Source of the DNA: a virus
Length of the DNA: 64,000 bases
Virus record (IMG/VR): IMGVR_UViG_3300022074_000004
Strand: one strand, 5' to 3'
The translations under genes were made by a program, and so were the position numbers. This document shows, in pieces, positions 13,620 to 33,062 of this stretch (the stretch's first letter is position 1; each line of letters opens with the position of its first letter). The notes under the pieces are model-generated. The model worked only from the letters and a program-made list of their open reading frames with translations, searched no databases and was not told where the DNA came from.

Positions 13620-13628
13620 GAATCTGAT

Positions 13629-13696
13629 AGCCAATTCTGAGACTGTCTACTCTCAGGGTTGAAAGGCTTGCAGGGTCATCATCCCAGAGCTAGCAT
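13629..13696 (+). promoter_or_regulatory. palindrome-type promoter (one helical turn longer)
   Basis: AGCCAATT-CTGA-GACTGTCT, then 42 nt to TAGCAT. Confidence 0.55.
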
Positions 13697-13701
13697 TAGA
13701 G

Positions 13702-13806
13702 TATAACACACACAGAGAGGTTGATCACCTATGACTGGGTCTCCCCCGAAGACCCACCACACACACGGAAGAGTATTAGGAGAGGCTTGAGAACCTCTCC
13801 TTTTTT
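13702..13806 (+). ncRNA. candidate ~105-nt small RNA (or 19-aa peptide transcript)
   Basis: own promoter, two hairpins, two ACACAC tracts, strong terminator. Confidence 0.5.
13778..13806 (+). terminator. rho-independent terminator
   Basis: AGGAGAGG-CTTGAGAA-CCTCTCCT + T-run. Confidence 0.9.
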
Positions 13807-14297
13807 ATGTCATCTTCATTGATTCTTTACCTGTTAATGTTTTCACCTTCACTAGCATCATCTTCACTCTCATTGTCATCTTCATTATCATCATTTTGAG
13901 CATTATTGCCTACAAAATAGCATAAAAACACATTAAAAATACATTTATAAATATACTTTCGTTTTTTATTCAAATGCACTCCCGATACGCCCAGCAGTGC
14001 CTCCAGAGCATCTCAACAGCATCTAAAACACTAAATCATACTCTATATGTGTCATCTTCACAATCATCATCACATATACACATACATATGTCATCTTCGC
14101 TATCATCATCATATTCATAATTTTTATCTTTATCTTTATACCTGTGGAATGCAGCTGTGGAATTGTGGAATAAATCTTTTATCATAAACTTTTTCTCTCA
14201 ATAGTATATGATTGTAAATTTTATGATTTATATTTTATTAGAAAAACATTTGATTTTTATTTCTCATAAACGTTTCATAATGCTCTGATAATGCTCC
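13807..14297. other. long non-coding AT-rich tract, candidate origin region
   Basis: no ORF of 60 aa or more on either strand; G-poor + strand; GTCATCTTC copies; TGTGGAAT x3. Confidence 0.45.
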
Positions 14298-14321
14298 GGG
14301 GTCTTGTGATCTTAGCCTGCG

Positions 14322-14350
14322 AGCTTAGCACCGACCGCCCGTTTTGTCAA
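14322..14350 (-). promoter_or_regulatory. leftward sigma70 promoter inside an inverted repeat
   Basis: minus strand TTGACA-17-TAAGCT; flanked by GGGGTCTTG/CAAGACCCC. Confidence 0.6.
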
Positions 14351-14448
14351 GACCCCCGCCATAAAAATTCACAAGGTCTCGGTTTTCAAACAATCCGCAT
14401 ACCTCCGAGTTTTATGGTATAATAAGCAAAAAAACACTATAAGGCAGT

Positions 14449-14491
14449 GGACGGTTTATGAAGTGGTACAGTGCCAGTTTTTTATGTGTCT
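14449..14491. promoter_or_regulatory. tandem palindrome pair 1
   Basis: GGACGGTT-TATG-AAGTGGTA-cag-TGCCAGTT-TTTT-ATGTGTCT. Confidence 0.7.
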
Positions 14492-14584
14492 TTGTAACAA
14501 TGTAAAGATTCATAAAATGGTAGTGAGTGACACAGCGCCACGGGCCACGGTGGGCTAGAGTAAGAATAGAGCCTTATGAGGGGT

Positions 14585-14627
14585 GGACAGTTTATGAAGT
14601 GGCACTGTGACACTTTGAGAACTGGCT
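14585..14627. promoter_or_regulatory. tandem palindrome pair 2
   Basis: GGACAGTT-TATG-AAGTGGCA-ctg-TGACACTT-TGAG-AACTGGCT. Confidence 0.8.
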
Positions 14628-14651
14628 GATTGTTACAGTTTGATATAATTA

Positions 14652-14717
14652 TTTTATGGCAGGAGTAGTGGCGATTATTGTTGTCATCGAGGTTACCCCA
14701 CCTCTCGTTTGATTTGA
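14652..14717. ncRNA. structured element E1 (functional strand unresolved)
   Basis: ungapped homology to E2 and E3 with covarying hairpins. Confidence 0.6.
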
Positions 14718-14721
14718 TCAT

Positions 14722-14815
14722 AGTATAGCAGCTCTCAGGGGTCTCTCAGGGCATCCGTGGACACTTATTGGACTGGCACAATAGAGGTAGCGGTGCCGCG
14801 ATCTGAGGTTATTCT
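14722..14815. promoter_or_regulatory. divergent promoter pair sharing one palindrome
   Basis: GGACACTT-ATTG-GACTGGCA (14759-14778) with TATACT on - and TATTCT on +, each exactly 31 nt away. Confidence 0.75.
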
Positions 14816-14838
14816 TTTATCAGTAACGTTCTTCCCCC

Positions 14839-15045
14839 ATGAGCTACGAAGTGTTTCACCGGACTTGGTGGCGGCGCAATGATGAGTGGCCTGATGGCCG
14901 GGAGCCCGGTTGCGGCCGTGCTTACCACATCGGCTGGGCTGCTGACGAAGCCGAAGCCAGTGCTATGTGTAAGGAGTGGAACAGCAAGCATAAGCCCGGG
15001 CTGTTTTCTGACAGAGCAGAGTACAGCGAGGGCCGGTTCACATAA
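14839..15045 (+). CDS. hypothetical protein
   Basis: YEVFHRTWW...WPDGREP; follows the promoter. Confidence 0.75.
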   Translation: MSYEVFHRTWWRRNDEWPDGREPGCGRAYHIGWAADEAEASAMCKEWNSKHKPGLFSDRAEYSEGRFT

Positions 15046-15084
15046 GCACTAAACTTTAACAGTATTTTTTTCCCCTTTTAAGTT

Positions 15085-15348
15085 ATGAACACTGAAACGT
15101 ATGACCTGCCCGCTCACTGGGCAAGCTATCTTATCAACGGCGATGCAACGTCATTCAGCCTGAATGATGATGGCGGAGACGCTGAGATCGCATTGATTGA
15201 TGAGGTTATGTCGAACATTGACCAGAAAGGAAACGCCATCATTGATGTTGATGCAGAAGAAAGTTTCTTCAAAAAGTATCACGATGCTCACATGTATGGC
15301 GTAATGGCTGGTACTTGCCTAACGTATAAGCTGACGTGGATTGACTGA
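15085..15348 (+). CDS. acidic hypothetical protein
   Basis: LPAHWASYLINGD motif. Confidence 0.8.
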   Translation: MNTETYDLPAHWASYLINGDATSFSLNDDGGDAEIALIDEVMSNIDQKGNAIIDVDAEESFFKKYHDAHMYGVMAGTCLTYKLTWID

Positions 15349-15412
15349 TCATAAACTTTAACGTTATTCTTTTTACCTTCCGCATCATAAGTCACCTTGG
15401 CGGTCATCATCG

Positions 15413-15469
15413 GGCCACCTGACACACTGGCACAACAGAGCTTGTGACCTTGAGAGCTGCGGCTATTCT
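15413..15469 (+). promoter_or_regulatory. palindrome-type promoter
   Basis: GGCCACCT-GACA-CACTGGCA, then 31 nt to TATTCT. Confidence 0.7.
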
Positions 15470-15500
15470 TTAGTTGTCAACGTTTTTCCCCTTCTGAGCC

Positions 15501-15749
15501 ATGACCACCACCGTCGTCAAGCACTGCTTCTATAAGGTCGAGATTGACACTAAAGACTCTGTGATCCCCATCATCTACTTTCGTAAGGTGAGACGCTGTA
15601 CCACTGCTAAGGGCATGGATCGTCAGCACAATCGCATCGTTAACGAGACTGTGGAGGCATGGCGTCCTTTTGACCGTCAGATCACGCGCTACACTGTTTC
15701 TCGTGTGCCAGCTGACGTAGTGGTCAAGGGTGAGATCCGCAACGCCTGA
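15501..15749 (+). CDS. basic hypothetical protein
   Basis: 82-aa ORF after the promoter. Confidence 0.75.
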   Translation: MTTTVVKHCFYKVEIDTKDSVIPIIYFRKVRRCTTAKGMDRQHNRIVNETVEAWRPFDRQITRYTVSRVPADVVVKGEIRNA

Positions 15750-15814
15750 TCGGCTCCCACTATGCTAGGATATGGTCAGTCAAAGGGGGCACCGCCTATG
15801 GCCTGATTCGCTAC

Positions 15815-15877
15815 AACCTAACGAGAGGCGATGTAGCCTCGCAGACGACAAAGGTCGCCACTGCCCCTGTAACAAAA
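15815..15877. ncRNA. structured element E2 (inverted relative to E1 and E3)
   Basis: reverse complement matches E1 at 46/63 positions ungapped. Confidence 0.6.
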
Positions 15878-15893
15878 TATAATTATGTAACAT

Positions 15894-15936
15894 AACCACA
15901 TATAAAAGTGTCACAGTGCCACTTCATAAACTGTCA
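15894..15936. promoter_or_regulatory. tandem palindrome pair 3
   Basis: AACCACAT-ATAA-AAGTGTCA-cag-TGCCACTT-CATA-AACTGTCA; largely an inverted copy of pair 2. Confidence 0.8.
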
Positions 15937-15951
15937 CATATCTTATAGGTA

Positions 15952-16017
15952 TTTTATGGCAGGAGAGCTTACGAACTTTATCGTCTACAGGGCGACCCAG
16001 CCCCTCCTCTGATTTGA
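15952..16017. ncRNA. structured element E3
   Basis: matches E1 at 45/66 positions ungapped, with two compensatory pairs. Confidence 0.6.
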
Positions 16018-16179
16018 ACCAATCATATCAGACCCAGCTGCGCTGTCTGTATCGTGTGATACCATTTTGGAAATATGTCGAAATGTGAATTTTCAAACGT
16101 TTCCCACTAGCGTTTCGCTCTCGGTGTCGTAACCTATTGGCAAGCGGGCGCACTGAAGCCCGCGCAACCCCAAAGGACT

Positions 16180-17313
16180 ATGAACAGCTCAGCTCAAGCT
16201 AAGGCTCTCGAAAGCCTTCTGGCTCTTGATACCGGTCGCGCCGATCGCCCGGACGGCTTCCGCATGTCCGCAGCGGATCACAAGCTTTTCCGTGGATACG
16301 CTCGTGTTGTTGAGCCCGGCATGACCGACAGCGACATCCTGATGCACGCTGGTGCTGGCTTCAACGTTGAGACGCAGCCGGTGAGTTTTAAACTGCCCAG
16401 CGGTAGCTACTGCTCAACCCCTGACAGCATCGTGTGGTCTCGGGATGATCGGGACGATGAGACGGCTTTTCTGGGTACGTTCGGCAACCGTCGCGCCGTG
16501 ATCCAGCCTAGCGACTTCCTTTCCTACTTCCAACGCTTCGTACAACAGTCTGGCAAGCGTATCTCCCTAGATGTTGTGGGAACGCTTGACAATGGAAAGC
16601 AATTCTTTATGGGCTCGAAACTTACAGAAAATAACATCGAAGCTATTCTTGACAATCCTGAGCACCAACACGTTGGAATGCGTGTTAATGAGTTCTTCAA
16701 ACAAGAGGATCTATCGGACTATTGGTTAGTCGTTACCGATTTTTATGGCACTAGCAGAGCACCACAGGTGAATCTTTTGTGCAATCGCTTAGTCTGCACC
16801 AACGGAATGACTCGTCAAGTTAAAACTAAGTTGGCAGCATTAACACACCGCAAGGATCTAACCGGCGATAGTGTTGTTGAAGTATTGAACCAAGGGATTC
16901 GTGAGGCTTCAAACTATTGTAAGATCCAGGATTTGCTGACTGAAATGGAACTAACTCCAGAACAATTCAATAACGGTATTAAGAAGTTCTGCCGGGTTAA
17001 AACAGGAACTTTGGACACTGATCTTCCTTCCAAAGTAAAGGGTTTCCGGGAAACGTATCACGCTACAGATAAAGGTAAGATCGTAGGAATCGAGACTTAT
17101 AAGACATCTACAGGTACAGATAACGCCTGGAGAGCACTGAATGCAGTGACACAATATATCACCCACAAGCCATTAAAGAACCAAGACGCTGCATTGCGTT
17201 CATCAATCAATGGCACTCGTGCTAAAGAACCGAACGCTTATTTGCAGTTCCTGGCTGATAACCACGGGACGCCAGATCAGCAGGCTGAGTTGAGAGAACT
17301 CATCGCAGTCTGA
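16180..17313 (+). CDS. DUF932/DUF945-like phage/plasmid protein
   Basis: GTLDNGKQFF, RLVCTNGM, LTH, NAWRALNAVTQYITH motifs; AAGGA RBS. Confidence 0.75.
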   Translation: MNSSAQAKALESLLALDTGRADRPDGFRMSAADHKLFRGYARVVEPGMTDSDILMHAGAGFNVETQPVSFKLPSGSYCSTPDSIVWSRDDRDDETAFLGTFGNRRAVIQPSDFLSYFQRFVQQSGKRISLDVVGTLDNGKQFFMGSKLTENNIEAILDNPEHQHVGMRVNEFFKQEDLSDYWLVVTDFYGTSRAPQVNLLCNRLVCTNGMTRQVKTKLAALTHRKDLTGDSVVEVLNQGIREASNYCKIQDLLTEMELTPEQFNNGIKKFCRVKTGTLDTDLPSKVKGFRETYHATDKGKIVGIETYKTSTGTDNAWRALNAVTQYITHKPLKNQDAALRSSINGTRAKEPNAYLQFLADNHGTPDQQAELRELIAV

Positions 17314-17321
17314 TAACACTA

Positions 17322-17382
17322 AGGGAGGGCTAATCACCCTCCCTCACTATTAAGAATAGATAACGATCACTATCTATTCTTA
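17322..17382 (+). terminator. two perfect hairpins ending the early region
   Basis: AGGGAGGG/CCCTCCCT (8 bp) and TAAGAATAGATA/TATCTATTCTTA (12 bp); no clear U-tract. Confidence 0.5.
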
Positions 17383-17604
17383 TTAAATAACAATCGTTAA
17401 TTATCACATAGCAATCACTAATTATTAATAATAGACAGTGTTTTTATATTATTATTATTTTATTAAGCGCGGCCATGTTGAAAAAAGCAAACATCCCTAG
17501 GCTACAGAGGTGACAAAACGCGATAGATATAAAAAAACGCGAAAATTTTTTGCGGCCCAAAAAGGGTCTTCAAGGGGTCGCGGAGAAAAAAATAATGGGT
17601 GGTA

Positions 17605-17633
17605 TTGACGAGGATATATAAGTTTGTTATAAT
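17605..17633 (+). promoter_or_regulatory. sigma70-type promoter
   Basis: TTGACG-17-TATAAT with extended TG. Confidence 0.8.
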
Positions 17634-17656
17634 AATGAGGTAGTCATTCAGAGATT

Positions 17657-18436
17657 ATGTCTAAAGGATTTACGGTAAAAGCTGATGCAGAAGAGGTGGC
17701 CCCACCAGAATTAGAATGGGACTACGCTGCAATCAAAGAAAGTATGAGAGGGAAGACGATTGTTTTTTGCCTTCCAGGCAGGGGAGTCTCGTATACATTT
17801 CTCAAAAATTTTGTACAATTATGTTTTGACATGGTGCAGAATGGCATGAGCATTCAGATCAGTCAAGATTATAGTTCCATGGTAAATTTCGCCCGTTGCA
17901 AATGTTTGGGTGCCAATGTATTGAGGGGACCCGATCAGGAGCCATGGGATGGTAAGTTAGATTATGATTATCAGTTGTGGATTGACAGTGATATTGTATT
18001 CAACTCCGAGAAATTCTGGCAGTTATGTGCATTAGCAGAACCTGAGAACGGCAAGGAGAATGCCATCACCTGCGGGTGGTATTGTACAGAAGATGGCAAG
18101 ACATCAAGTGTTGCACATTGGATGGACGAGGATGGTTTCAAAGATAACGGTGGTGTAATGAATCACGAAACTCTGACTAGTCTTGATGGACGCACAGAGC
18201 CATTCACTGTAGATTATGCAGGATTTGGATGGATGCTAATTCGCAAAGGGGTCTTTGAGGACAAGGAACTGAAGTATCCGTGGTTTGCACCAAAGATGCA
18301 AATTTTTGAAAGTGGACAAGTACAGGACATGTGTGGCGAGGATGTCAGCTTCTGTCTAGATGCAAAGGAAGCAGGATTTAGTATTCTCTGCGATCCACGC
18401 ATTCGTGTCGGACATGAAAAGAATCGTATTATTTGA
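17657..18436 (+). CDS. GT-A fold glycosyltransferase-like protein
   Basis: LWIDSD (DxD), GFGWMLI, YPWF, GEDVSFC, RVGH. Confidence 0.8.
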   Translation: MSKGFTVKADAEEVAPPELEWDYAAIKESMRGKTIVFCLPGRGVSYTFLKNFVQLCFDMVQNGMSIQISQDYSSMVNFARCKCLGANVLRGPDQEPWDGKLDYDYQLWIDSDIVFNSEKFWQLCALAEPENGKENAITCGWYCTEDGKTSSVAHWMDEDGFKDNGGVMNHETLTSLDGRTEPFTVDYAGFGWMLIRKGVFEDKELKYPWFAPKMQIFESGQVQDMCGEDVSFCLDAKEAGFSILCDPRIRVGHEKNRII

Positions 18437-18890: not shown

Positions 18891-19298
18891 ATGCCTTTAG
18901 AGAGAGTTAGTAAAGCGTTTAAGGATATTAGTTTATCTTTTTCAAGAAACCCTTTAACTGGCGATATATTTCCACTTAAGAATGAGACTGCTATTGCAAG
19001 ATCTGTTCGAAATATTGTATACACTCAATTTGGTGAGAAATTTTTTAATGTTCCATTTGGATCAGATATTACAAATTCATTGTTTGAAAATTTAGATTCT
19101 ATTAGTGCTGGTGTCATAGAAGATAGAATTAGAGTTTCGATTAGAGATTATGAGCCAAGAGTTAGATTGATTAGAGTTAATGTACGTCCTAATTTTGATA
19201 ACAATGAATTTAATGTAACAATAGTATATGAAATTATTGGGATTGATATTAACTCACAGGTACAGGAAATAGAATTTATTTTACAGCCAACGAGATAA
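18891..19298 (+). CDS. gp25: baseplate wedge subunit
   Basis: KDISLSF, AIARSVRNIV, GEKFF, YEPRV; synteny. Confidence 0.9.
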   Translation: MPLERVSKAFKDISLSFSRNPLTGDIFPLKNETAIARSVRNIVYTQFGEKFFNVPFGSDITNSLFENLDSISAGVIEDRIRVSIRDYEPRVRLIRVNVRPNFDNNEFNVTIVYEIIGIDINSQVQEIEFILQPTR

Positions 19299-21242: not shown

Positions 21243-24200
21243 ATGTCCGAAAGAATTCAGGTCAGTCAGGTTTTAAAAAGTCAGATCCCAAACTATGTTC
21301 GTGAAGAATATCCACAGTTTGAGAAATTTTTACAGCAATATTATATTGGACAGGAATATCCTGGTGGACCTATTGATTTGATAGAAAATATTGACAAGTA
21401 TGTTAAGATTGATTCACTATCAAATATAAATGATTCTGCTGTTTTGGCAACAGACATTTCATTTTCGAGTAGAATTATTAGAGTAGACTCGTCATTATCC
21501 CCACAAGGAACATCTGGATTTCCAGATTCTTACGGCCTACTTAAGATTGGTGATGAAGTCATCACATATAAGAACAAAACTGAGTTTTCATTTACTGGAT
21601 GTATTAGAGGATTTAGTGGAGTAACTAATTACAGAAATGAAGATAACTTGGGAGAGTTGACTTTTGAGAGTACTAAGATTGAAAAGCATAAGTCTGGTGC
21701 AACTATCCATAATCTGAGTGCTCTTTTCTTAAAGGAAATGTTTACGAAATTGAAGTATCAATTTCTTCCTGGATTGGAGAATAAAAAATTTGCTGGTTCT
21801 GTTGATGAGAACCTGTTTCTTCAGAAGAGTAGAGATTTTTATTCTGTTAAGGGAACACGTACAGGATTTGATCTGCTGTTTAAATTATTATACGGAGAAG
21901 AAATTGATATCATAAGTCCCAAGAACTATCTTTTTACTCCATCAAATTCAGACTTTGAAAAGTATGATGAGATGGTATTGGAAATCATTTCAGGAAATCC
22001 GGAAGATTTACTTTTATCTACACTTAGTCAAGAAGAGTATAAGGATATTATTGAAGAAGCATATGCTCCAATCACTGATGTTGAAAAACTTGATGATCCA
22101 GATAGTGATGGGAAGTATTATAAAGTCAAATTAGATTCCGGCTCTGGGGTAAATAGGGACAGTGGAGTTAAGGGCTCTATATCAGGAAGCTTTACAGTAC
22201 ACGCAAAAACTAGAGTTATAGGTGATGTTGAAATAGGAGCATCAATTATAACAGTTGATTCAACTGTAGGGTTCTCAAATGAAGGAGAACTGTATGTAAG
22301 GTATGCAGATCAGACATTTGGAGTTGTTTCATATACATCAAAATCATTCAATCAGTTCTTTGGTTGTTCAAATATAATCAATAATATCTTGGATGGATAT
22401 GGCGTTAGTGTTAACACCTTTGCATATGCTACTTCTGGTGATAATATCGTAAAAGTTAGAGTAAATTCTATACCATCTAGCGTTCAGTATAGCGATGATA
22501 GTTATGGATATCATAAAAATCTTCCCGTAACATTTAAAAATTTAGGCTATACTAGCGATTCTTACAAAAGTGATGGGTGGTTATACAATACTGGACCATG
22601 TTATGATATAAACAGAACTAATTTGATCGATACATCAGATAACACGTATGAAATTGAGCTGAAAACTAAGAATTATTTGCAAATTGACGACTCTGTTAAC
22701 ATCATATCTAGCAATCAGTCTAAAAAATTCGCCAGTGTTATTGATTTAATATCAGAAAATACCATATTGGTTCGCTGTGAGGGGCCAATTTTAGAAAATG
22801 ATCTGAAAGTAGAGAGGAATATCTTAAAATCTGAAGGGTCCATCATCACAAATGTGCAAAATGTCTATAAACACAACACTGAAGAGGAGTATTTGATTGC
22901 TTCGTCATCAATTCCTTCACTTTTGGACGAAAATAATGCAAAAAAAGTTACATTTTCAGGAACTTTCCTCCAAAATCAAGAAATATTGAAAATAAGTGAG
23001 TTCAAAGACCATGGATTTTACACTGGAGATGCGATTTTTTACAAACCAGAAGTAGAAATTCAAATCATTGAGGATGCTGACGAAAATGAAGAAGGTTTTA
23101 CTGAGACTGAGGTGATAAAATCTTCATTATTTGATGAAGGTCTATATTTTATCAAAAGAATATCACCAACTGAAGTTAAATTTGCGTTAAGTTTGTCAAA
23201 TATTGAAAAATCTCAATATATTTCTCCAAAAATTAACACAATTGTTGAAAATAATACTTTAGAGCCATATAAATTTAAAGGAAAAGAAATTAGAAGCCAA
23301 AATTTAGTCAGAAAACTAAAAAATCCGCAAAAAACTTCTGAAAAATCAAAAACAATTCCAGGATTTACTGGAATTATGATAAATGGAACAGAAATTTTAA
23401 ATTATAAGTCATCTGATAGAGTAAAATATGGAAAAATTGAAAAAATTGATGTAATTTCTAAAGGATATGATTACGATGTCATAAATCCACCAAATTTGAC
23501 TATTTCTGATAGTTCTGGACAAGGTGCAGAGGCATATGTTGACGTTTCTGGAGTTTTGCAAGAGCTTAGAATTGTAGATTCTGGATTTGACTATCAAAAA
23601 CCACCTATTTTGACAATAACAGGGGGAAATGGAGAAGGTGCAGAGGTTTCTCCAACAATGTCCGGAATAATTCATTCTGTAGAATTCAATTCTCTATCAA
23701 TTTCAACAGTTGATGACACAATTAAATTTACAGTAAATCATAAATTGAAAACTGGAGAAAGTGTTGTCTATAAAACTAACAATCAACAGTCAATTGGTGG
23801 TATTGTTGATGGATCCGAGTATTTCGTATCTGTAGTTGATAGTAAAACTATTTCTTTACATGAAACACAAAGTGATTCTGTTTCTGCAGCTAATAAAATT
23901 AGTTTTACTTCTCTTGGGGTTGGAAATCATATTATTGAGGCCACTGAAACCAAAAGTGTTGTGGCATCACTCAATGTAGTAAATTCTGGGTTAAATTATC
24001 AAAATAAAAAGAGAATATTGAAAGAAGAAAATATAAATTTACAAAAAGATTGTTTTTATATTAAAAATCATAGGTATGAATCTGGAGAACTCATAAAATA
24101 TTACTCAACAACTGGAACAGCCATAGGTGGACTAGAAATTGGCAAGGAATATGTAGTAACAAAGATAAGTGACGATGAATTTAGCATTTCTCAAGTTGGG

Positions 24201-27200
24201 GAAGACAATGTAAAAGAATTTTATAATAAAAACCAATATATTGACATAATATCTGTTGGTAGTGGCAAGCATACATTTAACTGCCCAGAAATCAAGGTAA
24301 GTATAATCAGTGAGATTGGATTGTCTCCTGTTGGGACAGAGACGTTTGAATTAAAAGTTCAGCCAGTTTTTAGAGGCCAAGTAGAAGCCGTCTACTTGGC
24401 AGATGAAGGTTCTAATTATGGATCTCCAGAGATATTGAACTATAATAGAACACCAAACTTAAGTTTAAGTAAAGGCTCTGATGCTCAAGTAAGCCCTGTC
24501 ATCAAAAATGGCGAAATCGTAGATGTTATTGTTTTAAATCAAGGTAAAAATTATACCTCCCCACCAAATATAAGAACTATCGGAGATGGAGCTGGTGCTG
24601 TACTAACTCCCATCATTGAAAATGGATTCTTGAGAGATGTTAATGTTATAAATGGTGGATTTGGTTTTGGTCAAGAAACATTTATAATTATTGAGTCAGT
24701 TGGTCAAGATTGTAAGTTCAATACAACTATACAATCTTGGAATGTCAATTTATTTGAGAAAAATATATCAAATATTGGTGCGGATGATATTTCAGTCGAA
24801 TGTGGCTTAAATGATAAGTATGGTCTACAGTACTCATATCTATATGCTCCTAGATCTTTAAGAGAATCTGTTTTTTCTATTAATTCAAGTGGAGAAGTGA
24901 TATATGGTTCAAAAGATCTTAAAAAGAAAAATAATAAAGAAACCGAATCCGATCACCACTCACCAATAATAGGATGGGCCTATGATGGAAGCCCAATTTA
25001 TGGACCATATGGTTATTCTCAGAAAAACGGTGGACAAATTGTACAGATGAAGTCAGGTTATAAATTAGACCTGAAACCAAATAGGCCATCAACATCTATC
25101 TTCCCAGAAGGTTACTTTTTAGAAGATTATTCATATTTTGATTCGAATGATGAATCTGTTCTCGACAGAAATAACGGAAGATTTTGCGTAACTCCAGATT
25201 ATCCAAATGGAACTTATGCATATTTCTCTACACTTGATGCAGAGAGTGTAGAATCGTCTGGCCTCTTTGCAAAATATAAAAAACCACAATTCCCATATTT
25301 TATTGGAGATTGTTATGAGAATGTTCCAATAGACTTCAATTTTGAAAAATCTTCTAATCAGGATGATTTTATATTTGGAGGAAATTGGGCAAGAAATACT
25401 TCTCCATACAATTTAGATTTTTCTGGGAAAAATTATAAGTATATTAATGTTCCAGATACTTCATCCCAAAAAGTAGTAATTGATTCTATTAAGTCGAGTG
25501 GAATAGATTCAATTTCAGTCAAAAGTGCCGGAGATCTTTACAAGGTCGATGATAAAGTTTTATTTGACGATGTGGGTAGTGGTGGTAATGGAGTATCAGC
25601 AAAAGTTTCTAGAATATCAGGAAAAACAACTAAACAAATTTCTTTTGATATAGTAAAAAAAGAAAATATAGAAGTATCCTCTACAAATAGAAAAAATGAG
25701 TACCTAGTTACTTCGGATGTCCCACATAGCCTCAATGATGGTGACATAGTGAATCTAAACAGCCTCTCAAGAAATTTTGAATTGACCGGATCTTATCCTG
25801 TTGGTGTAAGTACAAATATACTGAAAATTTCTCAAGATATACTGGATGTATCTCAGACTGGGCAAATCACATACTTTAATGTAATAGGAAACCTTAATGA
25901 AAATGCAATTCGCGAGAATGACATTTTGCAGATTGGTACAGAAAAGATCAAGGTACTAAAAATCAATAGATCAAATTATACTATAAAAGTATTAAGGCAA
26001 TTTGATGGGACTATTGGTTCATCTTACCCAATTTTTACAAATATTATAGAATTGCCAAGGAAACTTAAAATAAACTCAAAAGAAAAAGTATTGTCTCCTC
26101 AAAATAAACAAATATATTTTGATCCATCAAAATCTGTTGCAACTGGCAATACTTTTGGGATTGGTATAGGTGTATCTTTGCTGACAGAAGATGGGGAGTT
26201 GCATATTCCAACAAAGGCAATCTATCTTAAAAATCATGGATTGAAAACTGGAGATAGTATCACATACTCTACTGGAGGTGGAGACGGGTTAGTAGTATCT
26301 GAAGATGGAGTTACAACAAGATCTCTTACAGATGGGGAAAATTTATTTGTAGGAAGAGTTTCTGATGATTTAATTAGTATATCCACTGTTAGGGTAGGGT
26401 TAGATACCCAAGGCGTTTTTGTCGCCCTTGAGGGCGCTTCTGGTGCGTCTAGAACGCTTTATTTTGATAGTATTGGAACTGGAGAAAATCACAGCTTCAC
26501 CACCAACTACGTATCAACCACAGGAAATATTTCAAGAAATGAAGTTACTCTAGAAACAGAAAATCCCCATGAATTGACTGATGGGGATGAGATCTACTTA
26601 GAAGTCAATCCACAGGAAACGTTTACATATGAGGTTTCTTATGATGATCAGAATAGAAGATTAATCTTTAATAAAAAATCTTTCACCGATCCAAATGTAA
26701 GCGTCTCAGAAAATACAATTTATATTGAAAATCATAATTTAAGTTCCGGTGATAAGATATTGTACACATCAGACAATCCTTCAGATGGATTGGTAAGTGG
26801 AGAGATGTATTATGCTATTTTCTTCAATGAAAATAAAATAGGTTTAGCACAAAGTTATTTCGATTCAATCAGCAACAATTTTATTGATATAAAAACCCAA
26901 TCATCCGGAAACATTGGTTCTATAAATCCAAAAATTAGTGTTTATAGAGATTCAACAATTATTTTTGATGTTTCAGACGCATCTCTTTCATACTTGAGAC
27001 AAACCATAAGTTATTCCGCATTTAAGCTTGATTTTTACTTAGATACAAATCTTTCTTTATTTTGGAATGATGCAATAACAAACATACAAAGGTCCGGAAG
27101 GCCAGGGGTGGATTCTGACGCAAAAATTACTTTGAAAATTAATTCAGAATCTCCAGACATGATTTACTATAAGTTAAATCCAGTAATTCAGGATGGATTG

Positions 27201-30200
27201 CCAGATTCTAAAAAATATAGCTTTCCTGATTTGGAAATTGATGGAATGTCAACTATTCAAGTGAAAGATAGTGAATATAGTGGAAAATATAATATAAAAA
27301 CAATTTCTGATACTGAGGTAAAATTCAATACGACAAGAATTTGTGAAAAAGATGTATATACATCAGATATATCAAATATAAACTATAGTACAAATTCAAA
27401 AACTGTATCTGGACCGATTGAAAGTGTCTTAGTAACAAATCCAGGTAAAGAGTATACAAAAATGCCTAGAATCTCTTCAATAGAAAGTGAAGATGGCGAT
27501 AGTGCAATATTAGAACCTTTTGGCTCATCTGTTGGAGAGATTAATAATGTTAAGATAGAAAATCTAAAAAAAGATTATCCATCAGACGAAACATTAAGAC
27601 CAACTGCATCATTTACCCAAATTTTAAAGGTAGAGCCATTGTATTCTATCTCTTCTATAAACTTGACTGATTTCGGAAGAGGATATCTCGTTCCACCAAA
27701 ATTAGTTGTAAAAGATTCTGTTACAGATGAAGTGGTTCAAGATTTAGATCTTGAATATAAATTAGGAGATTCTGAAGTTAAAATTATTAAGAATACTCAC
27801 AGATTAAGGGATGCTATTCCTCAAATAATACCAACCCGCAATAGCAATGGAATTGGCATCTCAACTATTAGCTATGATCCCGATACACATGACGCTACTA
27901 TAACTTTATCAACTCAGTATAGCGATTCATCAGATTTCCCAATAAAACCAGGAGACAAATTTTTAGTAGAAAGTGCATTTGCAGTACCAGGCGGACTTGG
28001 CTTCAATTCTGAGGATTATAACTACAAGCTATTCACTGCAATATCAACAAATGAAAGCATTGGCGGGGGATTTGGCACAATCTCTTATAATATGTCAGAA
28101 TTATTTTCTCTTGGTGATACAGCTGGAACTTATGACCATATAAGATCACTTGGTAGGATTATACCAGAATCATATTTTCCAAAATTTGAAGTATCTATAG
28201 AACAAAGTGATTTTTTGACCAGAGAAACTTATGAACTTAATGAAACTATAAAAGGAAAGCTTCATAATGGGACTATTGAATACTGGGAATCAGAGACTGG
28301 ATTGATGCATATTTTGTCAAATGAAATATATGATATTGGGTCAATTGTAAGAGGAATTTCTTCAAAAGCGGAAGGAAATGTTATATCCTCTATTAGGACA
28401 AAATCATATTTTCCTTTGGGTTCTTCATTAAGTATAAGAAAGTCATCAAATACAAATTCTGGATTTTTAAACGACAGCTTCCAAAGATTACAGGATAGTG
28501 ACTATTATCAGAATTTCTCATATTCAATAAAATCTAGAATACCATATGAGACTTGGAATGATCACATATCTCCACTGACACATACGGCTGGATTTAAAAA
28601 ATTCTCAGACTATCAGATTGAATCTATGGCAGATAGTCAAACATCAATGAGAGTTAATATTTCTAGCAATTCTGTCGATCAAGTCAATGATTTAATTGGA
28701 AAAGTCAATTTAAATTCTTTCTCGGACTTTGATCTAGTATCTGAAAATGATGTTGATGGAATATCAAACAAAATATTGTTTAATAGCAAAATCTTAGGTG
28801 ATTATTTTGAATCTGTTGGTAATAAGGTTTTAGAAGTAGATAACATTTCAAATCTTTTTAATAGCAATCCAAGATCAACAAAATTTAGCCCAGTAGCTAC
28901 ATTTAGTAAACTGGATAATAGATATCTAAAATTCATTACTTTAGTAAAAGATAGAAGATATACGCAACAAAGACAATTAATGATTATCGATCTAATTCAT
29001 GATAATTTTGAGGGGTATATCAATCAATACGGTAGAGTGGAAACAGAGTATGATCTTGGATCTTTTGATTATACAATTATTGGAAATCAGGGTATTTTAT
29101 TATTCTATCCAGAGAGGCATGAAATAAATGATTATGATATATCTGCAATATCATTTAACTTGGATGAGATCATATCAAGTGCTGTAGATACTATCATTGG
29201 TACATCATTAATAACCACTGAAGGGAAAGAGCTGCAAGGTGGCACTTCTACAGTTTTTGAAATAGATGCATCTTACAGCTCGATAAAATTATTATTACAA
29301 ATAAATCCAGAGTCTCAAGTTGGGAAAGAATTTGAGGTTAGTGAATTAAATATCATGAATGATGGTTCAAATATCCACATTTTAGAAAATACAAAATTAT
29401 CTACAGATTTGGGCCAAAATAGCACTGTTGGTTTGGGGACATATCATGCATATATCGATGGATCCAAATTAAAGGTAGACTTTATTCAGAATCAAAATAC
29501 GAACATAGATTCTGGAATTATTAATACATACTGCATTGCTTTAGGCGATGAAAATTCAAGTGGATCTCAGACAGAATATTTGAAGCATGTAACATTCAAT
29601 TCCAAGTCTACAACAATAGCATCATCTCCAACTCCAAGTGAAATAGTAATTGCAGAATATGAAACTGAAGAAACATATAATGCAGCACACTTGATGGTAC
29701 AAATTTCTGATACTACGAATGATAAAAAACAATTCTCTGAAGTTATTGTGGTTGATAGTTATGAATCAGGCATTCCTACATACGAAACATATGATACTGA
29801 ATACGGTATTATAAATGATGGGGATGTGTTAGGCGAGATTAGCTCAAGAGTTATCTTAGATGGTACATATAAAACTCAAATAATGTTTACTCCTATAGCA
29901 AATATTGATACCCATGTCAATGTCTTTATGACTGCTTTGAGAAATCAGGATGATACAAGAGACCAAATCAATATGGCCAGTGGCAGTATTAGAAGTTACG
30001 GCGGTATCTATGAAGGAACACACTCTGATATAAAGAAATCTTTCGAATTATATAACTCCGGAGAAAAAATATTTGAAAGAACTTTTGATAGTCAAGATCA
30101 AGATATTGTGAATATTGCTGATGATAAACTTAATATCAATACTCACTTCTTTGTCACTGGAGAGTCAATTAAATATGTTCCAGGAAGTCCAAATTCAATT

Positions 30201-33062
30201 TTTGAGGCAATCGAGATAGAACCAACATCTTTTGCTGGAATTGGTGTCACTGATAGGTTGCCACAAGATATATTTGCAATTAAGCTTCCAGACAATACGC
30301 TTAGATTTGCTTCTAGTGCAGAAAATGCTCTAAAGTCAACACCGGAGTTTATAAAATTTGTAAATTATGGTGTTGGTTCGGCCCATAGAATTGTAGCTAA
30401 TAATCAAAATACAAAAGCTCTTCTTACAATTGACAATGTAATACAATCACCAATTGTAGAATCTAAAAAGACAGCATCAGTAACTCAAGATGTATTTACA
30501 ACAAGTGATATAATTCGATTTGATGATACGACTGGATTTTTTGGAACTGACTTGATTAGAGTCAATGACGAAATTATGATGATTGAAAGTATTGGGATCG
30601 GATCTCCAGAAAATGTACGTGTTAGAAGAACTCAGTTGGGAACAAAGATATCTCCACACTCTGCTGGCTCAACTATAACCAAATTAAATGGTAATTATAA
30701 TATTGTTGATAATACATTAAACTTTGTAAGAGCACCATATGGAAGATTACCATTTTCAACATCTACTGGGTCTCCAGAAGAAAGAGACTGGTCTGGAATA
30801 TCAACTAGCTCCAATTTTAGTGGAAGAATTTTCTTAAGATCAGGTATACCAAATACAAGTAGTGAAACATATACTACAAATTATATTTTCGATGATATAT
30901 CTGACCAGTTTAATTCGACACAAAATGAATTTGTTTTAAAATCTAATAGCTCGAATGTAAGTGGAATAAAAAATGGCATAGTTATTGTTAATGATGTATT
31001 CCAATATCCAGGAAGAGTAAATTGTGATATATTGACTTCTGATGCTTCTGGAATATCAACCGTCAAATTTACAGGAAATAGTAGGACAATTACAAATGAT
31101 GTTGGTATATCAAGTTTCCCTAGAGGTGGTTTGATTGTATCAGTTGGCTCATCAGAAGGTCTAGGATATCAACCACTTATAACTGCTGGAGGATTTGCAA
31201 CTATCAATTCTAGCGGAGAAATTGATTCCATAACAATGGATAATGTTGGATCTGGATATAGAGCTGGTTTGCAAACTGTAAACGTAAGTGCCATTAATGA
31301 TCCCGATGATATTCAGATAATTGGTACAGCGAATATTGTTGATGGAAAAGTTTCTAGTGTGAATATATCAAATCCAGGTAGTGGATATTCAGCTGCACCT
31401 AGAATTGAATTTGACGATCCACTAAATTACTATGATTTGCCTTTGATTTACTCAGCAAATTCTACTGGGTCTGGACAGGGAGCATCTATAAACATTATAG
31501 TTGGGCAGGAATCTAAAGTAATAGATTTTTCAATAACAAATACTGGTTATGGGTATAATGTTGGAGACAAATTAACTGTTCCAACATCCACCGCAGTTGG
31601 TATAGAAACAAACTCAAATTTTGAAGAATTTGTTATAACTGTTGACAAAACCATTTCGGATACTTTTAGTGGATGGACATTTGGGGAATTGGAAGTCCTT
31701 GATAATATTGAAAGATTCATTGACGGAGAAAACACAATATTTCCTCTATTGAGTTCAAATATTGAGAAATCAATTATTTCAAATAGAGGATCTTCAATTG
31801 ATGTTAAAAATGTATTACTTGTATTTGTCAATAATATTCTTCAGATACCAGGAGAGGGGTATATTTTTAATGGAGGAAGTACAATTCAATTTACAGAGCC
31901 ATTGAAAAAAGAAGATACTGTTGAGATTTTATTCTATAAAGGAAGTGGTGATGTTGATGTAATTCCAAGAAACATTATTGAGACGGTTAAGGCGGGGGAT
32001 GATCTTCAAATAATCAATGACCCCTCAGTTGGTCAAAAAGAATTCTTAAAAGAAGATATACGTGTAGCAACAGAGGTTACATCAACAAATGTTGTGATTA
32101 CAAATCCATATTATGGACCAGGAAATATTGATGAGGAATCTCTATTACGTCCTATAACTTGGACTAAGCAAACTGAAGATAAAATTATTGATGATGTTTT
32201 CGTCGGTAAAGATAGAGAGCTATATGAGGCATCAATAAATCCAATATCTTATATAATCGGTTCTGTTGGTATTGGGCAAACTGTTGTTTATGTTGATAGT
32301 CTAAGACCAACATTTAATTCCAAAAATGAAAATAATATAGACATTTCTTTCCAAAATGAAGTTACACTAATATCTCAAGATGAGGTAAAAGTTGAAAGCA
32401 ATGATGTTACATCTTATTCAGGAGACTATGGTATTATTGTTGGGTTTGGTGTCACAACAACTACATCAAATAAAATAATTTTTGATCTTTATATACCAGA
32501 AGATTCTCCACTGAGAGACAGCTCAATTAATGAAACTCCTATCACGGTTAGCGAATTGTCTGCCGGAGATTATTTCTCAGTCAGTAATTCCATAGTTTCT
32601 GCTGATCCAGATTTATACCCTCTTATCTCTTATGATCACAACTCAGGTGCAGTAGTTGCAAAAACAGATTCATATCTTGACTCTATTTTTGTGGTTGAAA
32701 GTGCAGAGAATGTTGATAAGCAACTAAATGGTATTACAATAACTGTAAGGAGAGTATACTGTAATATAACACCTAATGGAATACTTGACCGCGATCGTTT
32801 TGATTCCAGTCTATTCTCTTTTGATAGTGATAGTACTAAATTTGATAGCGTTCCAAGCAGTCAAAATAGTGGCCCAGTTTACACCGGAACTATTAGTACC
32901 TCCAATTTTATAGGACATTATAGTTGGGGTAAGGTAATTCTTGATGGTAGGATTAAAAACTACTCGTATAATGCATATGCATTAGATGGATATGCTGGGA
33001 TTTCAACTTCTGCAATGGTTAGAAGAACAATACCATTAAAATATAATAATTACACCGGATAA
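21243..33062 (+). CDS. gp7: giant baseplate wedge initiator, 3939 aa
   Basis: follows gp6; DFYSVKGT N-terminal motif, LQDSDYYQNFSY...HTAG, internal repeats. Confidence 0.85.
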   Translation: MSERIQVSQVLKSQIPNYVREEYPQFEKFLQQYYIGQEYPGGPIDLIENIDKYVKIDSLSNINDSAVLATDISFSSRIIRVDSSLSPQGTSGFPDSYGLLKIGDEVITYKNKTEFSFTGCIRGFSGVTNYRNEDNLGELTFESTKIEKHKSGATIHNLSALFLKEMFTKLKYQFLPGLENKKFAGSVDENLFLQKSRDFYSVKGTRTGFDLLFKLLYGEEIDIISPKNYLFTPSNSDFEKYDEMVLEIISGNPEDLLLSTLSQEEYKDIIEEAYAPITDVEKLDDPDSDGKYYKVKLDSGSGVNRDSGVKGSISGSFTVHAKTRVIGDVEIGASIITVDSTVGFSNEGELYVRYADQTFGVVSYTSKSFNQFFGCSNIINNILDGYGVSVNTFAYATSGDNIVKVRVNSIPSSVQYSDDSYGYHKNLPVTFKNLGYTSDSYKSDGWLYNTGPCYDINRTNLIDTSDNTYEIELKTKNYLQIDDSVNIISSNQSKKFASVIDLISENTILVRCEGPILENDLKVERNILKSEGSIITNVQNVYKHNTEEEYLIASSSIPSLLDENNAKKVTFSGTFLQNQEILKISEFKDHGFYTGDAIFYKPEVEIQIIEDADENEEGFTETEVIKSSLFDEGLYFIKRISPTEVKFALSLSNIEKSQYISPKINTIVENNTLEPYKFKGKEIRSQNLVRKLKNPQKTSEKSKTIPGFTGIMINGTEILNYKSSDRVKYGKIEKIDVISKGYDYDVINPPNLTISDSSGQGAEAYVDVSGVLQELRIVDSGFDYQKPPILTITGGNGEGAEVSPTMSGIIHSVEFNSLSISTVDDTIKFTVNHKLKTGESVVYKTNNQQSIGGIVDGSEYFVSVVDSKTISLHETQSDSVSAANKISFTSLGVGNHIIEATETKSVVASLNVVNSGLNYQNKKRILKEENINLQKDCFYIKNHRYESGELIKYYSTTGTAIGGLEIGKEYVVTKISDDEFSISQVGEDNVKEFYNKNQYIDIISVGSGKHTFNCPEIKVSIISEIGLSPVGTETFELKVQPVFRGQVEAVYLADEGSNYGSPEILNYNRTPNLSLSKGSDAQVSPVIKNGEIVDVIVLNQGKNYTSPPNIRTIGDGAGAVLTPIIENGFLRDVNVINGGFGFGQETFIIIESVGQDCKFNTTIQSWNVNLFEKNISNIGADDISVECGLNDKYGLQYSYLYAPRSLRESVFSINSSGEVIYGSKDLKKKNNKETESDHHSPIIGWAYDGSPIYGPYGYSQKNGGQIVQMKSGYKLDLKPNRPSTSIFPEGYFLEDYSYFDSNDESVLDRNNGRFCVTPDYPNGTYAYFSTLDAESVESSGLFAKYKKPQFPYFIGDCYENVPIDFNFEKSSNQDDFIFGGNWARNTSPYNLDFSGKNYKYINVPDTSSQKVVIDSIKSSGIDSISVKSAGDLYKVDDKVLFDDVGSGGNGVSAKVSRISGKTTKQISFDIVKKENIEVSSTNRKNEYLVTSDVPHSLNDGDIVNLNSLSRNFELTGSYPVGVSTNILKISQDILDVSQTGQITYFNVIGNLNENAIRENDILQIGTEKIKVLKINRSNYTIKVLRQFDGTIGSSYPIFTNIIELPRKLKINSKEKVLSPQNKQIYFDPSKSVATGNTFGIGIGVSLLTEDGELHIPTKAIYLKNHGLKTGDSITYSTGGGDGLVVSEDGVTTRSLTDGENLFVGRVSDDLISISTVRVGLDTQGVFVALEGASGASRTLYFDSIGTGENHSFTTNYVSTTGNISRNEVTLETENPHELTDGDEIYLEVNPQETFTYEVSYDDQNRRLIFNKKSFTDPNVSVSENTIYIENHNLSSGDKILYTSDNPSDGLVSGEMYYAIFFNENKIGLAQSYFDSISNNFIDIKTQSSGNIGSINPKISVYRDSTIIFDVSDASLSYLRQTISYSAFKLDFYLDTNLSLFWNDAITNIQRSGRPGVDSDAKITLKINSESPDMIYYKLNPVIQDGLPDSKKYSFPDLEIDGMSTIQVKDSEYSGKYNIKTISDTEVKFNTTRICEKDVYTSDISNINYSTNSKTVSGPIESVLVTNPGKEYTKMPRISSIESEDGDSAILEPFGSSVGEINNVKIENLKKDYPSDETLRPTASFTQILKVEPLYSISSINLTDFGRGYLVPPKLVVKDSVTDEVVQDLDLEYKLGDSEVKIIKNTHRLRDAIPQIIPTRNSNGIGISTISYDPDTHDATITLSTQYSDSSDFPIKPGDKFLVESAFAVPGGLGFNSEDYNYKLFTAISTNESIGGGFGTISYNMSELFSLGDTAGTYDHIRSLGRIIPESYFPKFEVSIEQSDFLTRETYELNETIKGKLHNGTIEYWESETGLMHILSNEIYDIGSIVRGISSKAEGNVISSIRTKSYFPLGSSLSIRKSSNTNSGFLNDSFQRLQDSDYYQNFSYSIKSRIPYETWNDHISPLTHTAGFKKFSDYQIESMADSQTSMRVNISSNSVDQVNDLIGKVNLNSFSDFDLVSENDVDGISNKILFNSKILGDYFESVGNKVLEVDNISNLFNSNPRSTKFSPVATFSKLDNRYLKFITLVKDRRYTQQRQLMIIDLIHDNFEGYINQYGRVETEYDLGSFDYTIIGNQGILLFYPERHEINDYDISAISFNLDEIISSAVDTIIGTSLITTEGKELQGGTSTVFEIDASYSSIKLLLQINPESQVGKEFEVSELNIMNDGSNIHILENTKLSTDLGQNSTVGLGTYHAYIDGSKLKVDFIQNQNTNIDSGIINTYCIALGDENSSGSQTEYLKHVTFNSKSTTIASSPTPSEIVIAEYETEETYNAAHLMVQISDTTNDKKQFSEVIVVDSYESGIPTYETYDTEYGIINDGDVLGEISSRVILDGTYKTQIMFTPIANIDTHVNVFMTALRNQDDTRDQINMASGSIRSYGGIYEGTHSDIKKSFELYNSGEKIFERTFDSQDQDIVNIADDKLNINTHFFVTGESIKYVPGSPNSIFEAIEIEPTSFAGIGVTDRLPQDIFAIKLPDNTLRFASSAENALKSTPEFIKFVNYGVGSAHRIVANNQNTKALLTIDNVIQSPIVESKKTASVTQDVFTTSDIIRFDDTTGFFGTDLIRVNDEIMMIESIGIGSPENVRVRRTQLGTKISPHSAGSTITKLNGNYNIVDNTLNFVRAPYGRLPFSTSTGSPEERDWSGISTSSNFSGRIFLRSGIPNTSSETYTTNYIFDDISDQFNSTQNEFVLKSNSSNVSGIKNGIVIVNDVFQYPGRVNCDILTSDASGISTVKFTGNSRTITNDVGISSFPRGGLIVSVGSSEGLGYQPLITAGGFATINSSGEIDSITMDNVGSGYRAGLQTVNVSAINDPDDIQIIGTANIVDGKVSSVNISNPGSGYSAAPRIEFDDPLNYYDLPLIYSANSTGSGQGASINIIVGQESKVIDFSITNTGYGYNVGDKLTVPTSTAVGIETNSNFEEFVITVDKTISDTFSGWTFGELEVLDNIERFIDGENTIFPLLSSNIEKSIISNRGSSIDVKNVLLVFVNNILQIPGEGYIFNGGSTIQFTEPLKKEDTVEILFYKGSGDVDVIPRNIIETVKAGDDLQIINDPSVGQKEFLKEDIRVATEVTSTNVVITNPYYGPGNIDEESLLRPITWTKQTEDKIIDDVFVGKDRELYEASINPISYIIGSVGIGQTVVYVDSLRPTFNSKNENNIDISFQNEVTLISQDEVKVESNDVTSYSGDYGIIVGFGVTTTTSNKIIFDLYIPEDSPLRDSSINETPITVSELSAGDYFSVSNSIVSADPDLYPLISYDHNSGAVVAKTDSYLDSIFVVESAENVDKQLNGITITVRRVYCNITPNGILDRDRFDSSLFSFDSDSTKFDSVPSSQNSGPVYTGTISTSNFIGHYSWGKVILDGRIKNYSYNAYALDGYAGISTSAMVRRTIPLKYNNYTG

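Follow-up and report, generated by a model that had tools for sequence, protein, structure and literature searches.

Repeated elements at gene-cassette joints of T4-like cyanophages as candidate small RNA genes read away from early promoters

The IMG/VR virus record IMGVR_UViG_3300022074_000004 supplied the 64-kilobase (kb) stretch of DNA that, as a whole, is called the window here. It belongs to a T4-like cyanomyovirus, with a gp25 baseplate gene at 18891-19298 and large structural genes after it. Three copies of a short element, designated E1, E2, and E3, lie within 1.4 kb in the variable region upstream of gp25, among small early-type genes. An earlier note on this DNA had aligned the copies without gaps, and we confirmed that alignment for E1 (14652-14717, plus strand), E2 (15812-15877, minus strand), and E3 (15952-16017, plus strand), with zero gaps and identities of 46/63 (47/66) for E1 and E2, 45/66 for E1 and E3, and 41/66 for E2 and E3. 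A covariance model built from the three copies (R1) assigned them scores of 81-88 bits (87.8 for E1), and the next best site in the window reached 10.9 bits. Judged by alignment and model score, the three repeats are true copies of an element that is widespread in viruses of marine and lake cyanobacteria.

Relatives of the element were collected from IMG/VR by two pattern scans followed by model filtering. R1 returned 91 matches, comprising 62 distinct sequences on cyanophage contigs, and a second covariance model built on the opposite strand (R2) returned 113 matches and 81 distinct sequences on contigs of T4-like cyanophages. Cultured phages with R2 copies were the Synechococcus phages DSL-LC03 (one), B3 (two), and S-SRM01 (two) and the Prochlorococcus phage P-SSM2 (one, at 66477-66551 on the minus strand); phage B23 was matched by BLAST only. 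A complete 207-kb relative carried four copies at the same genomic site. R2 found zero copies in Syn9, S-PM2, and S-CAM4 and only a weak, chance-level match in Syn1, and no copy was present at the loci of relatives of a DUF932 gene that lies at 16180-17313 in the window (loci L003-L019). One pattern, run against 596 Gb of bacterial and archaeal genomes, hit 16 places in high-GC organisms. Because none of these passed the model, the element looks phage-specific within the reach of that pattern, and a host origin was set aside. At the gathering score, Rfam 15 gave no match in the window or in three relatives, wcaG, manA, glnA, PhotoRC, Yfr1, and Yfr2/Cyano-1 included, and at E values up to 10 it gave only chance matches of 12-21 bits to unrelated families. 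The element is thus uncatalogued, being absent both from Rfam and from the literature searched. The proposal in the earlier note of a selected, structured element from a family that Rfam lacks was borne out, with covariation across the family as described below.

Hairpin 2 is the sole helix with real covariation in the family. The two double changes described for it in the window are present, and from the three copies alone the covariation is modest, with 37 of 500 shuffles reaching the observed score. It is strong in the wider family, where 0 of 500 shuffles reached the hairpin score and models in which the partner was slid by 1-3 columns also fell far below it. Compensatory changes occur in four of the five pairs. 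The outermost pair, read on the strand opposite to the one folded in the earlier note, is G.U in 63 sequences, G-C in 16, and A-U in two, and the other four pairs exchange G-C/A-U/C-G, G-C/U-A/A-U, G-C/C-G, and C-G/A-U/U-A/U-G. One loop type, RRGGUM, is common to the stems GGGGC/GCCCU, GAGGU/ACCUC, GGGGA/UCCCU, GGCAGA/UCUGCC, and AGGAG/CUCCU, the last of which is that of P-SSM2.

The same hairpin discriminates between the strands. On the strand chosen in the earlier note, which reads TTTT..CAGG first and is called the TTTT-first strand below, 80-82% of hairpin 2 cells are paired, and 48 of 62 sequences have A.C as their outermost pair. The opposite strand gave 99.3% of 278 cells paired when the alignment owed nothing to the model and 99.8% of 403 cells paired, 69 of them as G.U, when it was fitted to the model. 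Because these G.U pairs would be A.C on the TTTT-first strand, an RNA of the opposite strand is indicated, and the folding direction proposed earlier is not supported: the covarying hairpin needs G.U pairs that are present only on the other strand.

No second helix emerged. Hairpin 1, which the earlier note had also taken to be selected, holds among the three window copies but has no compensatory support across the 62 family members, in which one sequence has a double change, the remaining pairs do not vary or vary in only one partner, and each variable pair is broken in 8 to 41 cells. It is thus not supported as a selected helix, and it barely forms on the opposite strand. A long-range helix or pseudoknot between the 5' arm and loop of the hairpin and a CCUGCC segment scored no better than shuffles. 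Coding was also considered. An 18-codon frame (MAG...) in E1 and E3 begins exactly at the predicted plus-strand start; in the family its ATG is absent from most copies, its stop position varies, and a clade with a 1-nucleotide (nt) insertion shifts the frame. Entropies at codon positions 1, 2, and 3 were 0.70, 0.61, and 0.53, making the third position the least variable, and the AUG of a 12-codon frame on the opposite strand was not conserved. By these comparisons, the element is not protein-coding and the 18-codon frame is spurious.

A promoter-like box accompanies the element on the strand indicated by the hairpin. Of 61 copies, 60 carry an opposite-strand TAnnnT at a constant distance, starting ~5 nt past the 'TTTGA' end of the element, with T1, A2, and T6 fixed and positions 3-5 variable (TATAAT in 15, TATACT in 11, TATGAT in nine, and others); TAnnnT on the TTTT-first strand occurs at the same place in only 33 of 61. 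The -10 boxes that the earlier note had marked at 14722 and 16022 are true minus-strand TAnnnT boxes at this conserved position. Its third box, TAGGAT at 15766, is kept in the three E2-type orthologues seen, which have TATGCT at the family-standard position, where the window has a decayed TATGGC next to E2, and keep TAGGAT 40 nt further out. Three designs lie behind the box: in most copies a 22-base-pair (bp) palindrome, GTGCCASTT-N4-AASTGGCAC, at 30 nt; in loci L082, L083, and L126 and in DSL-LC03, TTGACA or TTGACG at 17 nt; and for E3 in the window, an NtcA-type box at 21 nt. Textbook NtcA promoters, used here as the yardstick, have GTA-N8-TAC ~22 nt upstream of TAN3T with its centre near -41.5, and the sequence at copy 3 fits this geometry. 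In P-SSM2 the order is palindrome, 30 nt, TATAAT, and then the element. Host RNA polymerase would start ~7 nt past the TAnnnT box, and the fall of this predicted start on the first conserved bases of the element is the strongest argument for a transcription unit read 'backwards'.

The palindrome has its own distribution. In the form GNCASTT-N4-AASTGNC it occurs at 18 sites in the window versus 6.1 expected, 12 of them between 1957 and 15935, and it is enriched over a reversed-pattern control in Syn9 (9 versus 0 sites), Syn1 (8 versus 0), and S-CAM4 (9 versus 1), as well as in DSL-LC03. We take it provisionally to be the early-gene element reported for Syn9 and P-TIM40. Doron and colleagues reportedly described in 2016 a conserved element upstream of early genes that is common in T4-like cyanophages; the palindrome likewise stands in the early region of the window, and an attached leftward RNA unit is not mentioned in the literature searched. 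Across 268 distinct sites (loci L020-L129), -10 boxes peak sharply at 30-31 nt from the 22-mer on both sides. In most family members the palindrome lies 30 nt from the element box, and on its other side the next early gene has its -10 box 30-31 nt away, so a single site would serve two promoters that face outwards, that of the element and that of the gene. At several element-free palindromes, boxes are directed antisense towards the end of the upstream gene, which raises the prospect that early promoters generally give leftward transcription.

At the TTTT end, the picture differs between the window and the family. Tandem palindrome pairs, to which the earlier note had seen each copy docked, do lie 25, 17, and 14 nt from the three TTTT ends, but this adjacency is confined to the clade of the window, as is a good -10 box at the TTTT end. 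Docking is therefore not a rule of the family, whose promoter lies at the opposite end instead, usually with one palindrome held in common with the neighbouring gene. In 37 of 56 copies, the upstream gene ends in an intrinsic terminator that, with an AT-rich spacer, precedes the TTTT end. The box TGATATAAT (14641-14649), assigned earlier to the opposite strand just upstream of E1, is actually on the plus strand, and E1 thus has two facing promoter-like boxes with predicted starts ~60 bp apart. In most clades no U-tract follows hairpin 2, and only the clade of E1 passes a simple terminator scan. Table 1 collects the positions of these features.

Table 1. Positions in the window of the element copies, palindromes, promoter-like boxes, and intervening genes.
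Feature	Position	Strand	Remarks
Copy 1 (E1) as candidate RNA gene	14646-14721	-	R2 score 81.7 bits; predicted start near 14715
Covarying 5-bp hairpin of copy 1, GAGGU-GGGGUA-ACCUC	14689-14704	-	
Copy 2 (E2) as candidate RNA gene	15808-15883	+	R2 score 72.4 bits; hairpin at 15825-15840
Copy 3 (E3) as candidate RNA gene	15946-16021	-	R2 score 68 bits
Hairpin of copy 3, GGGGC-UGGGUC-GCCCU	15989-16004	-	Outermost pair G.U
Putative -10 box TATACT of copy 1, leftward	14722-14727	-	Fixed offset, 60/61 members
Putative -10 box TATGAT of copy 3 (TGA before it)	16022-16027	-	Fixed offset, 60/61 members
Candidate promoters of copy 2	15766-15802	+	Distal TAGGAT, 15766-15771; decayed proximal TATGGC, 15797-15802
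NtcA-type box GTATC-N4-GATAC (GTATCGTGTGATAC)	16049-16062	-	21 nt upstream of copy 3 -10 box; centre ~-40.5
Early-promoter palindrome	14757-14779	.	29 nt to copy 1 -10 box; 30 nt to TATTCT at 14810-14815
Putative -10 box TATTCT of rightward 68-codon gene (14839-15045)	14810-14815	+	30 nt from palindrome
Tandem palindrome pair adjoining copy 1	14583-14626	.	
Tandem palindrome pair between head-to-head copies 2 and 3	15895-15937	.	
Extended -10 box TGATATAAT into copy 1 from TTTT end	14641-14649	+	Convergent; clade-specific
Three small cargo genes between copies 1 and 2	14839-15749	+	Absent from three module-keeping relatives

Comparison with relatives placed the element at the seams of gene exchange. 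The non-coding modules at 14265-14830 and 15745-16054 have 74-76% DNA identity to the 207-kb relative and are kept in three relatives (L051, L065, and the 207-kb genome, G001), in none of which did the genes at 14839-15749 or the DUF932 gene at 16180-17313 have a counterpart, even by tblastx. In a more distant clade, the phrog_1574 gene that comes after the element in the window is again present, with the element ~3 kb upstream of it. As far as these genomes allow, element and palindromes together form a conserved joint, and the gene cassettes on either side of it vary from one related phage to another. The stretch from 14000 to 18000 is a G+C island (45%, versus 31-43% in the remaining window), the gene at 15501-15749 (phrog_5495) has ~80% DNA identity to genes of the Synechococcus phages S-CAM4, Syn1, and others, and no close relative of the whole region was found in the phage collection searched. 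The higher G+C and the phrog_5495 match, in a window whose other DNA has no close relative, suggest recent import of cassettes from higher-GC phages.

Promoter-early stem-loop (PeSL) cassettes of T4-type phages, which consist of a terminator hairpin and a sigma-70 promoter facing the next gene (PMC2839356, PMC4122927), provide the closest comparison for this arrangement. PeSLs are short, repeated, non-coding promoter/terminator units of variable regions, and the copies in the window are likewise repeated in such a region and flank small genes that differ between close relatives. PeSL cassettes have a near-consensus TTGACA-N17-TATAAT promoter facing the downstream gene, whereas here there is a palindrome and a -10 box with no -35 box, and the TTGACA-type promoters of a few members face backwards into the element. 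Moreover, the covarying hairpin is probably not a terminator in most clades, unlike the PeSL stem-loop, no conserved unit of 66-76 nt read backwards has been described for PeSLs, and the PeSL paper makes no mention of cyanophages.

We conclude that each copy is probably a small non-coding RNA gene on the opposite strand, which starts beside an early gene promoter and is read away from it. The predicted RNA would begin with a purine-rich 5' end of 12-16 nt containing GAGG, continue into the 5-bp hairpin with its conserved G-rich loop RRGGUM and then into a conserved unpaired stretch, UG..GACG..AAA..UCGCCAC, and finish in an A/U-rich tail that, in many relatives although not in the window, would enter the terminator hairpin of the upstream gene from behind. 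Conservation of the loop and of the unpaired stretch suggests a partner, RNA or protein, that is itself conserved, which favours a role in trans, and an early trans-acting regulatory RNA is the most likely function. Antitermination of the nut/put type was set aside because no genes lie downstream in the direction of the RNA. A more specific proposal, which we regard as speculative and improbable in its particulars, is a portable early small RNA gene common to cyanomyoviruses of the open ocean (P-SSM2) and of lakes (B3, S-SRM01), which different phages would have placed under the early-promoter factor, sigma-70 alone, or NtcA. The exposed, GAGG-rich 5' end and the G-rich loop of its RNA would target C/U-rich sequences of the host in trans, for example a Yfr1-type small RNA motif or the anti-Shine-Dalgarno tail of 16S RNA, so that the RNA would be a phage-encoded mimic or sponge within the small RNA network of the host.

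Public sequencing runs contained this stretch mostly as DNA. Between 13800 and 17400, read-length pieces from RNA libraries covered 14645-14795 and 15881-16043 at a depth of 2-4, and one RNA-library contig spans the predicted start. In the best DNA run, the assembly splits into short contigs exactly at the repeats (14587-14770 and 15850-15980), where the summed depth is doubled (110 and 123 versus ~45-50). Such contig breaks and doubled depth are expected if co-occurring phages share modules.

Several observations weigh against an RNA gene on the opposite strand. The RNA-library contigs (X18, X19, and X20) have no strand information and possibly represent DNA carry-over, so the corresponding pieces are uninformative on expression. 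A terminator-like site in the direction of the RNA is present in only 12 of 56 copies, which leaves the 3' end of the predicted RNA undefined. Single-copy fold energies are unremarkable, with z values of -0.9 to -3.1, and do not discriminate between the strands. One short helix covaries, and the remaining conserved sequence is equally readable on double-stranded DNA; part of the conservation observed was itself imposed by the search patterns, and the larger of the two pairing counts came from an alignment (A7) fitted to the model's own structure, which favours pairing. Finally, boxes occur on both sides at 58 of 229 palindromes that lack the element, and two-way geometry is for this reason weak evidence for a leftward RNA. 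Three rival readings were weighed. In the first, an RNA of the TTTT-first strand would start at the TTTT end after TGATATAAT in E1, TATAGG in E3, or CATAAT in E2, with the tandem palindromes as its docking sites, and hairpin 2 and a U-rich tail would terminate it; at some loci it may coexist with the opposite-strand RNA as a convergent pair. In its favour, the extended -10 box of E1 (14641-14649) is perfect and has a palindrome across its -35 region, an arrangement kept in three of four members of the E1 clade, and hairpin 2 of E1 followed by UCGUUUGAUU is the only terminator-like site that the scan found in 14000-16400; the G.U pairs of hairpin 1 also exist on this strand only. Against it, a sense TAnnnT at the E1 position is found in only 14 of 61 copies, and most copies have an upstream terminator and T-run there instead; most clades lack a U-rich tail behind hairpin 2, hairpin 1 is often broken and does not covary, and the covarying hairpin would be A.C-mismatched in the 48 sequences noted above. 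We consider this reading rather unlikely.

A joint that functions as DNA, with no RNA function, is somewhat less likely still. It could be a patch of homology for recombination, as proposed for PeSL cassettes, or a duplex bound by protein, with the leftward box a by-product of a symmetric promoter site. The retention of modules while their cargo differs, the location of the copies in the variable region upstream of gp25, the many element-free palindromes with boxes on both sides, and the predominance of conserved sequence over conserved structure in the element are all consistent with it. Recombination or duplex binding would, however, leave the compensatory changes in the hairpin and the tolerance of G.U on one strand unexplained, and neither would it account for three unrelated promoter designs that end at the same element-side box. 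The third reading is a start of replication like the T4 origins oriF and oriG, which consist of a promoter and a downstream unwinding element. A G-rich transcript from the promoter would enter an AT-rich tract and persist in it as an R-loop that primes DNA synthesis. The predicted RNA start here is purine-rich (GAGGGGCGGGG) and is followed in most copies by 20-30 nt of very AT-rich sequence. That tract is the one feature observed that speaks for the primer or R-loop RNA, the priming signal, or the self-cleavage raised in the earlier note. Loci with one to four copies within 1.4-3 kb are unlike an origin, however, Syn9, S-PM2, and S-CAM4 do without any copy, and at many loci the AT-rich sequence belongs to the upstream terminator, as its T-run and spacer. 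We regard an origin as very improbable. Comparison shows the family, the hairpin and its strand, the promoter boxes, and the exchange of cassettes; the production of an RNA, its end, and its role are inferred.

Other features of these genomes lie close to the element. In P-SSM2 (locus L159, 66124-66930), a second leftward unit, with a palindrome, 30 nt, and TATAAT, and then a third palindrome follow the element copy in the direction of the RNA, all within a 400-nt gene-free gap between PSSM2_098 and PSSM2_099. At locus L087 (1440-1540), a leader of ~95 nt belongs to the early gene that lies downstream of the element, and in this leader a GC-rich hairpin, GGCGGG...CCCGCC, is followed by CCCCUUUUAU, an attenuator- or terminator-like arrangement ahead of the ATG. 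In the window, ~1.2 kb at 13620-14838 has no open reading frame longer than 50 codons and is dense in repeats. It holds two 32-nt direct repeats at 14044-14114, an AT-rich tract, a hairpin with a 9-bp stem (GGGGTCTTG...CAAGACCCC, 14299-14357) and followed by GCCATAAAA, which resembles the tail of the element. At 14420-14428 there is a TGGTATAAT box, and a third tandem palindrome pair occupies 14447-14490. Three relatives keep parts of this stretch, and it may hold further small RNAs. The structural block of the window contains two very long open reading frames, at 21243-33062 (3939 codons) and 38431-45132 (2233 codons).

Short RNAs that run against the flow of genes have precedents in other phages. 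Lambda OOP RNA and the pR and pL promoters of coliphage 186, which lie 62 bp apart, exemplify back-to-back or face-to-face phage promoters in the lysis-lysogeny switches of temperate phages. The predicted RNA resembles OOP in being short and opposed to the genes, and the facing boxes of E1 have a similar spacing. In contrast, the phage here is a lytic, T4-like one, and most copies have no second facing promoter. Known RNAs of cyanophages and cyanobacteria include wcaG, manA, glnA, PhotoRC-II, abiF, and CfrI (PMC9964418, PMC2864571) and the host small RNAs Yfr1 and Yfr2 (PMC6778093, PMC6191309). Of these, Yfr2 has features in common with the predicted RNA: its 5' motif is conserved, its first stem-loop carries a conserved motif, a genome holds several copies, and its promoter includes a palindromic element. 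That element, CGRE1 (PlmA-type), is by its published wording a palindrome of 21-22 nt that starts 55-57 nt before the RNA start and has GTTG/GTTA flanks; the palindrome here spans about -64 to -43 with flanks GTGC..GCAC and differs from this description in both position and flanks.

Little is known about the regulatory RNAs of T4-like cyanophages, which kill a large share of the picocyanobacteria of oceans and lakes, and those catalogued amount to a handful of Rfam motifs. The family described here provides a conserved, strand-resolved candidate RNA gene that no fewer than four cultured phages carry, the model phage P-SSM2 among them. It also suggests that the early-promoter palindrome can work in both directions, and the same predicted RNA body stands behind three promoter designs. 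The modules that carry the element mark the seams at which small genes are exchanged, and with them the PeSL concept, drawn from coliphages and vibriophages, would come to include cyanophages.

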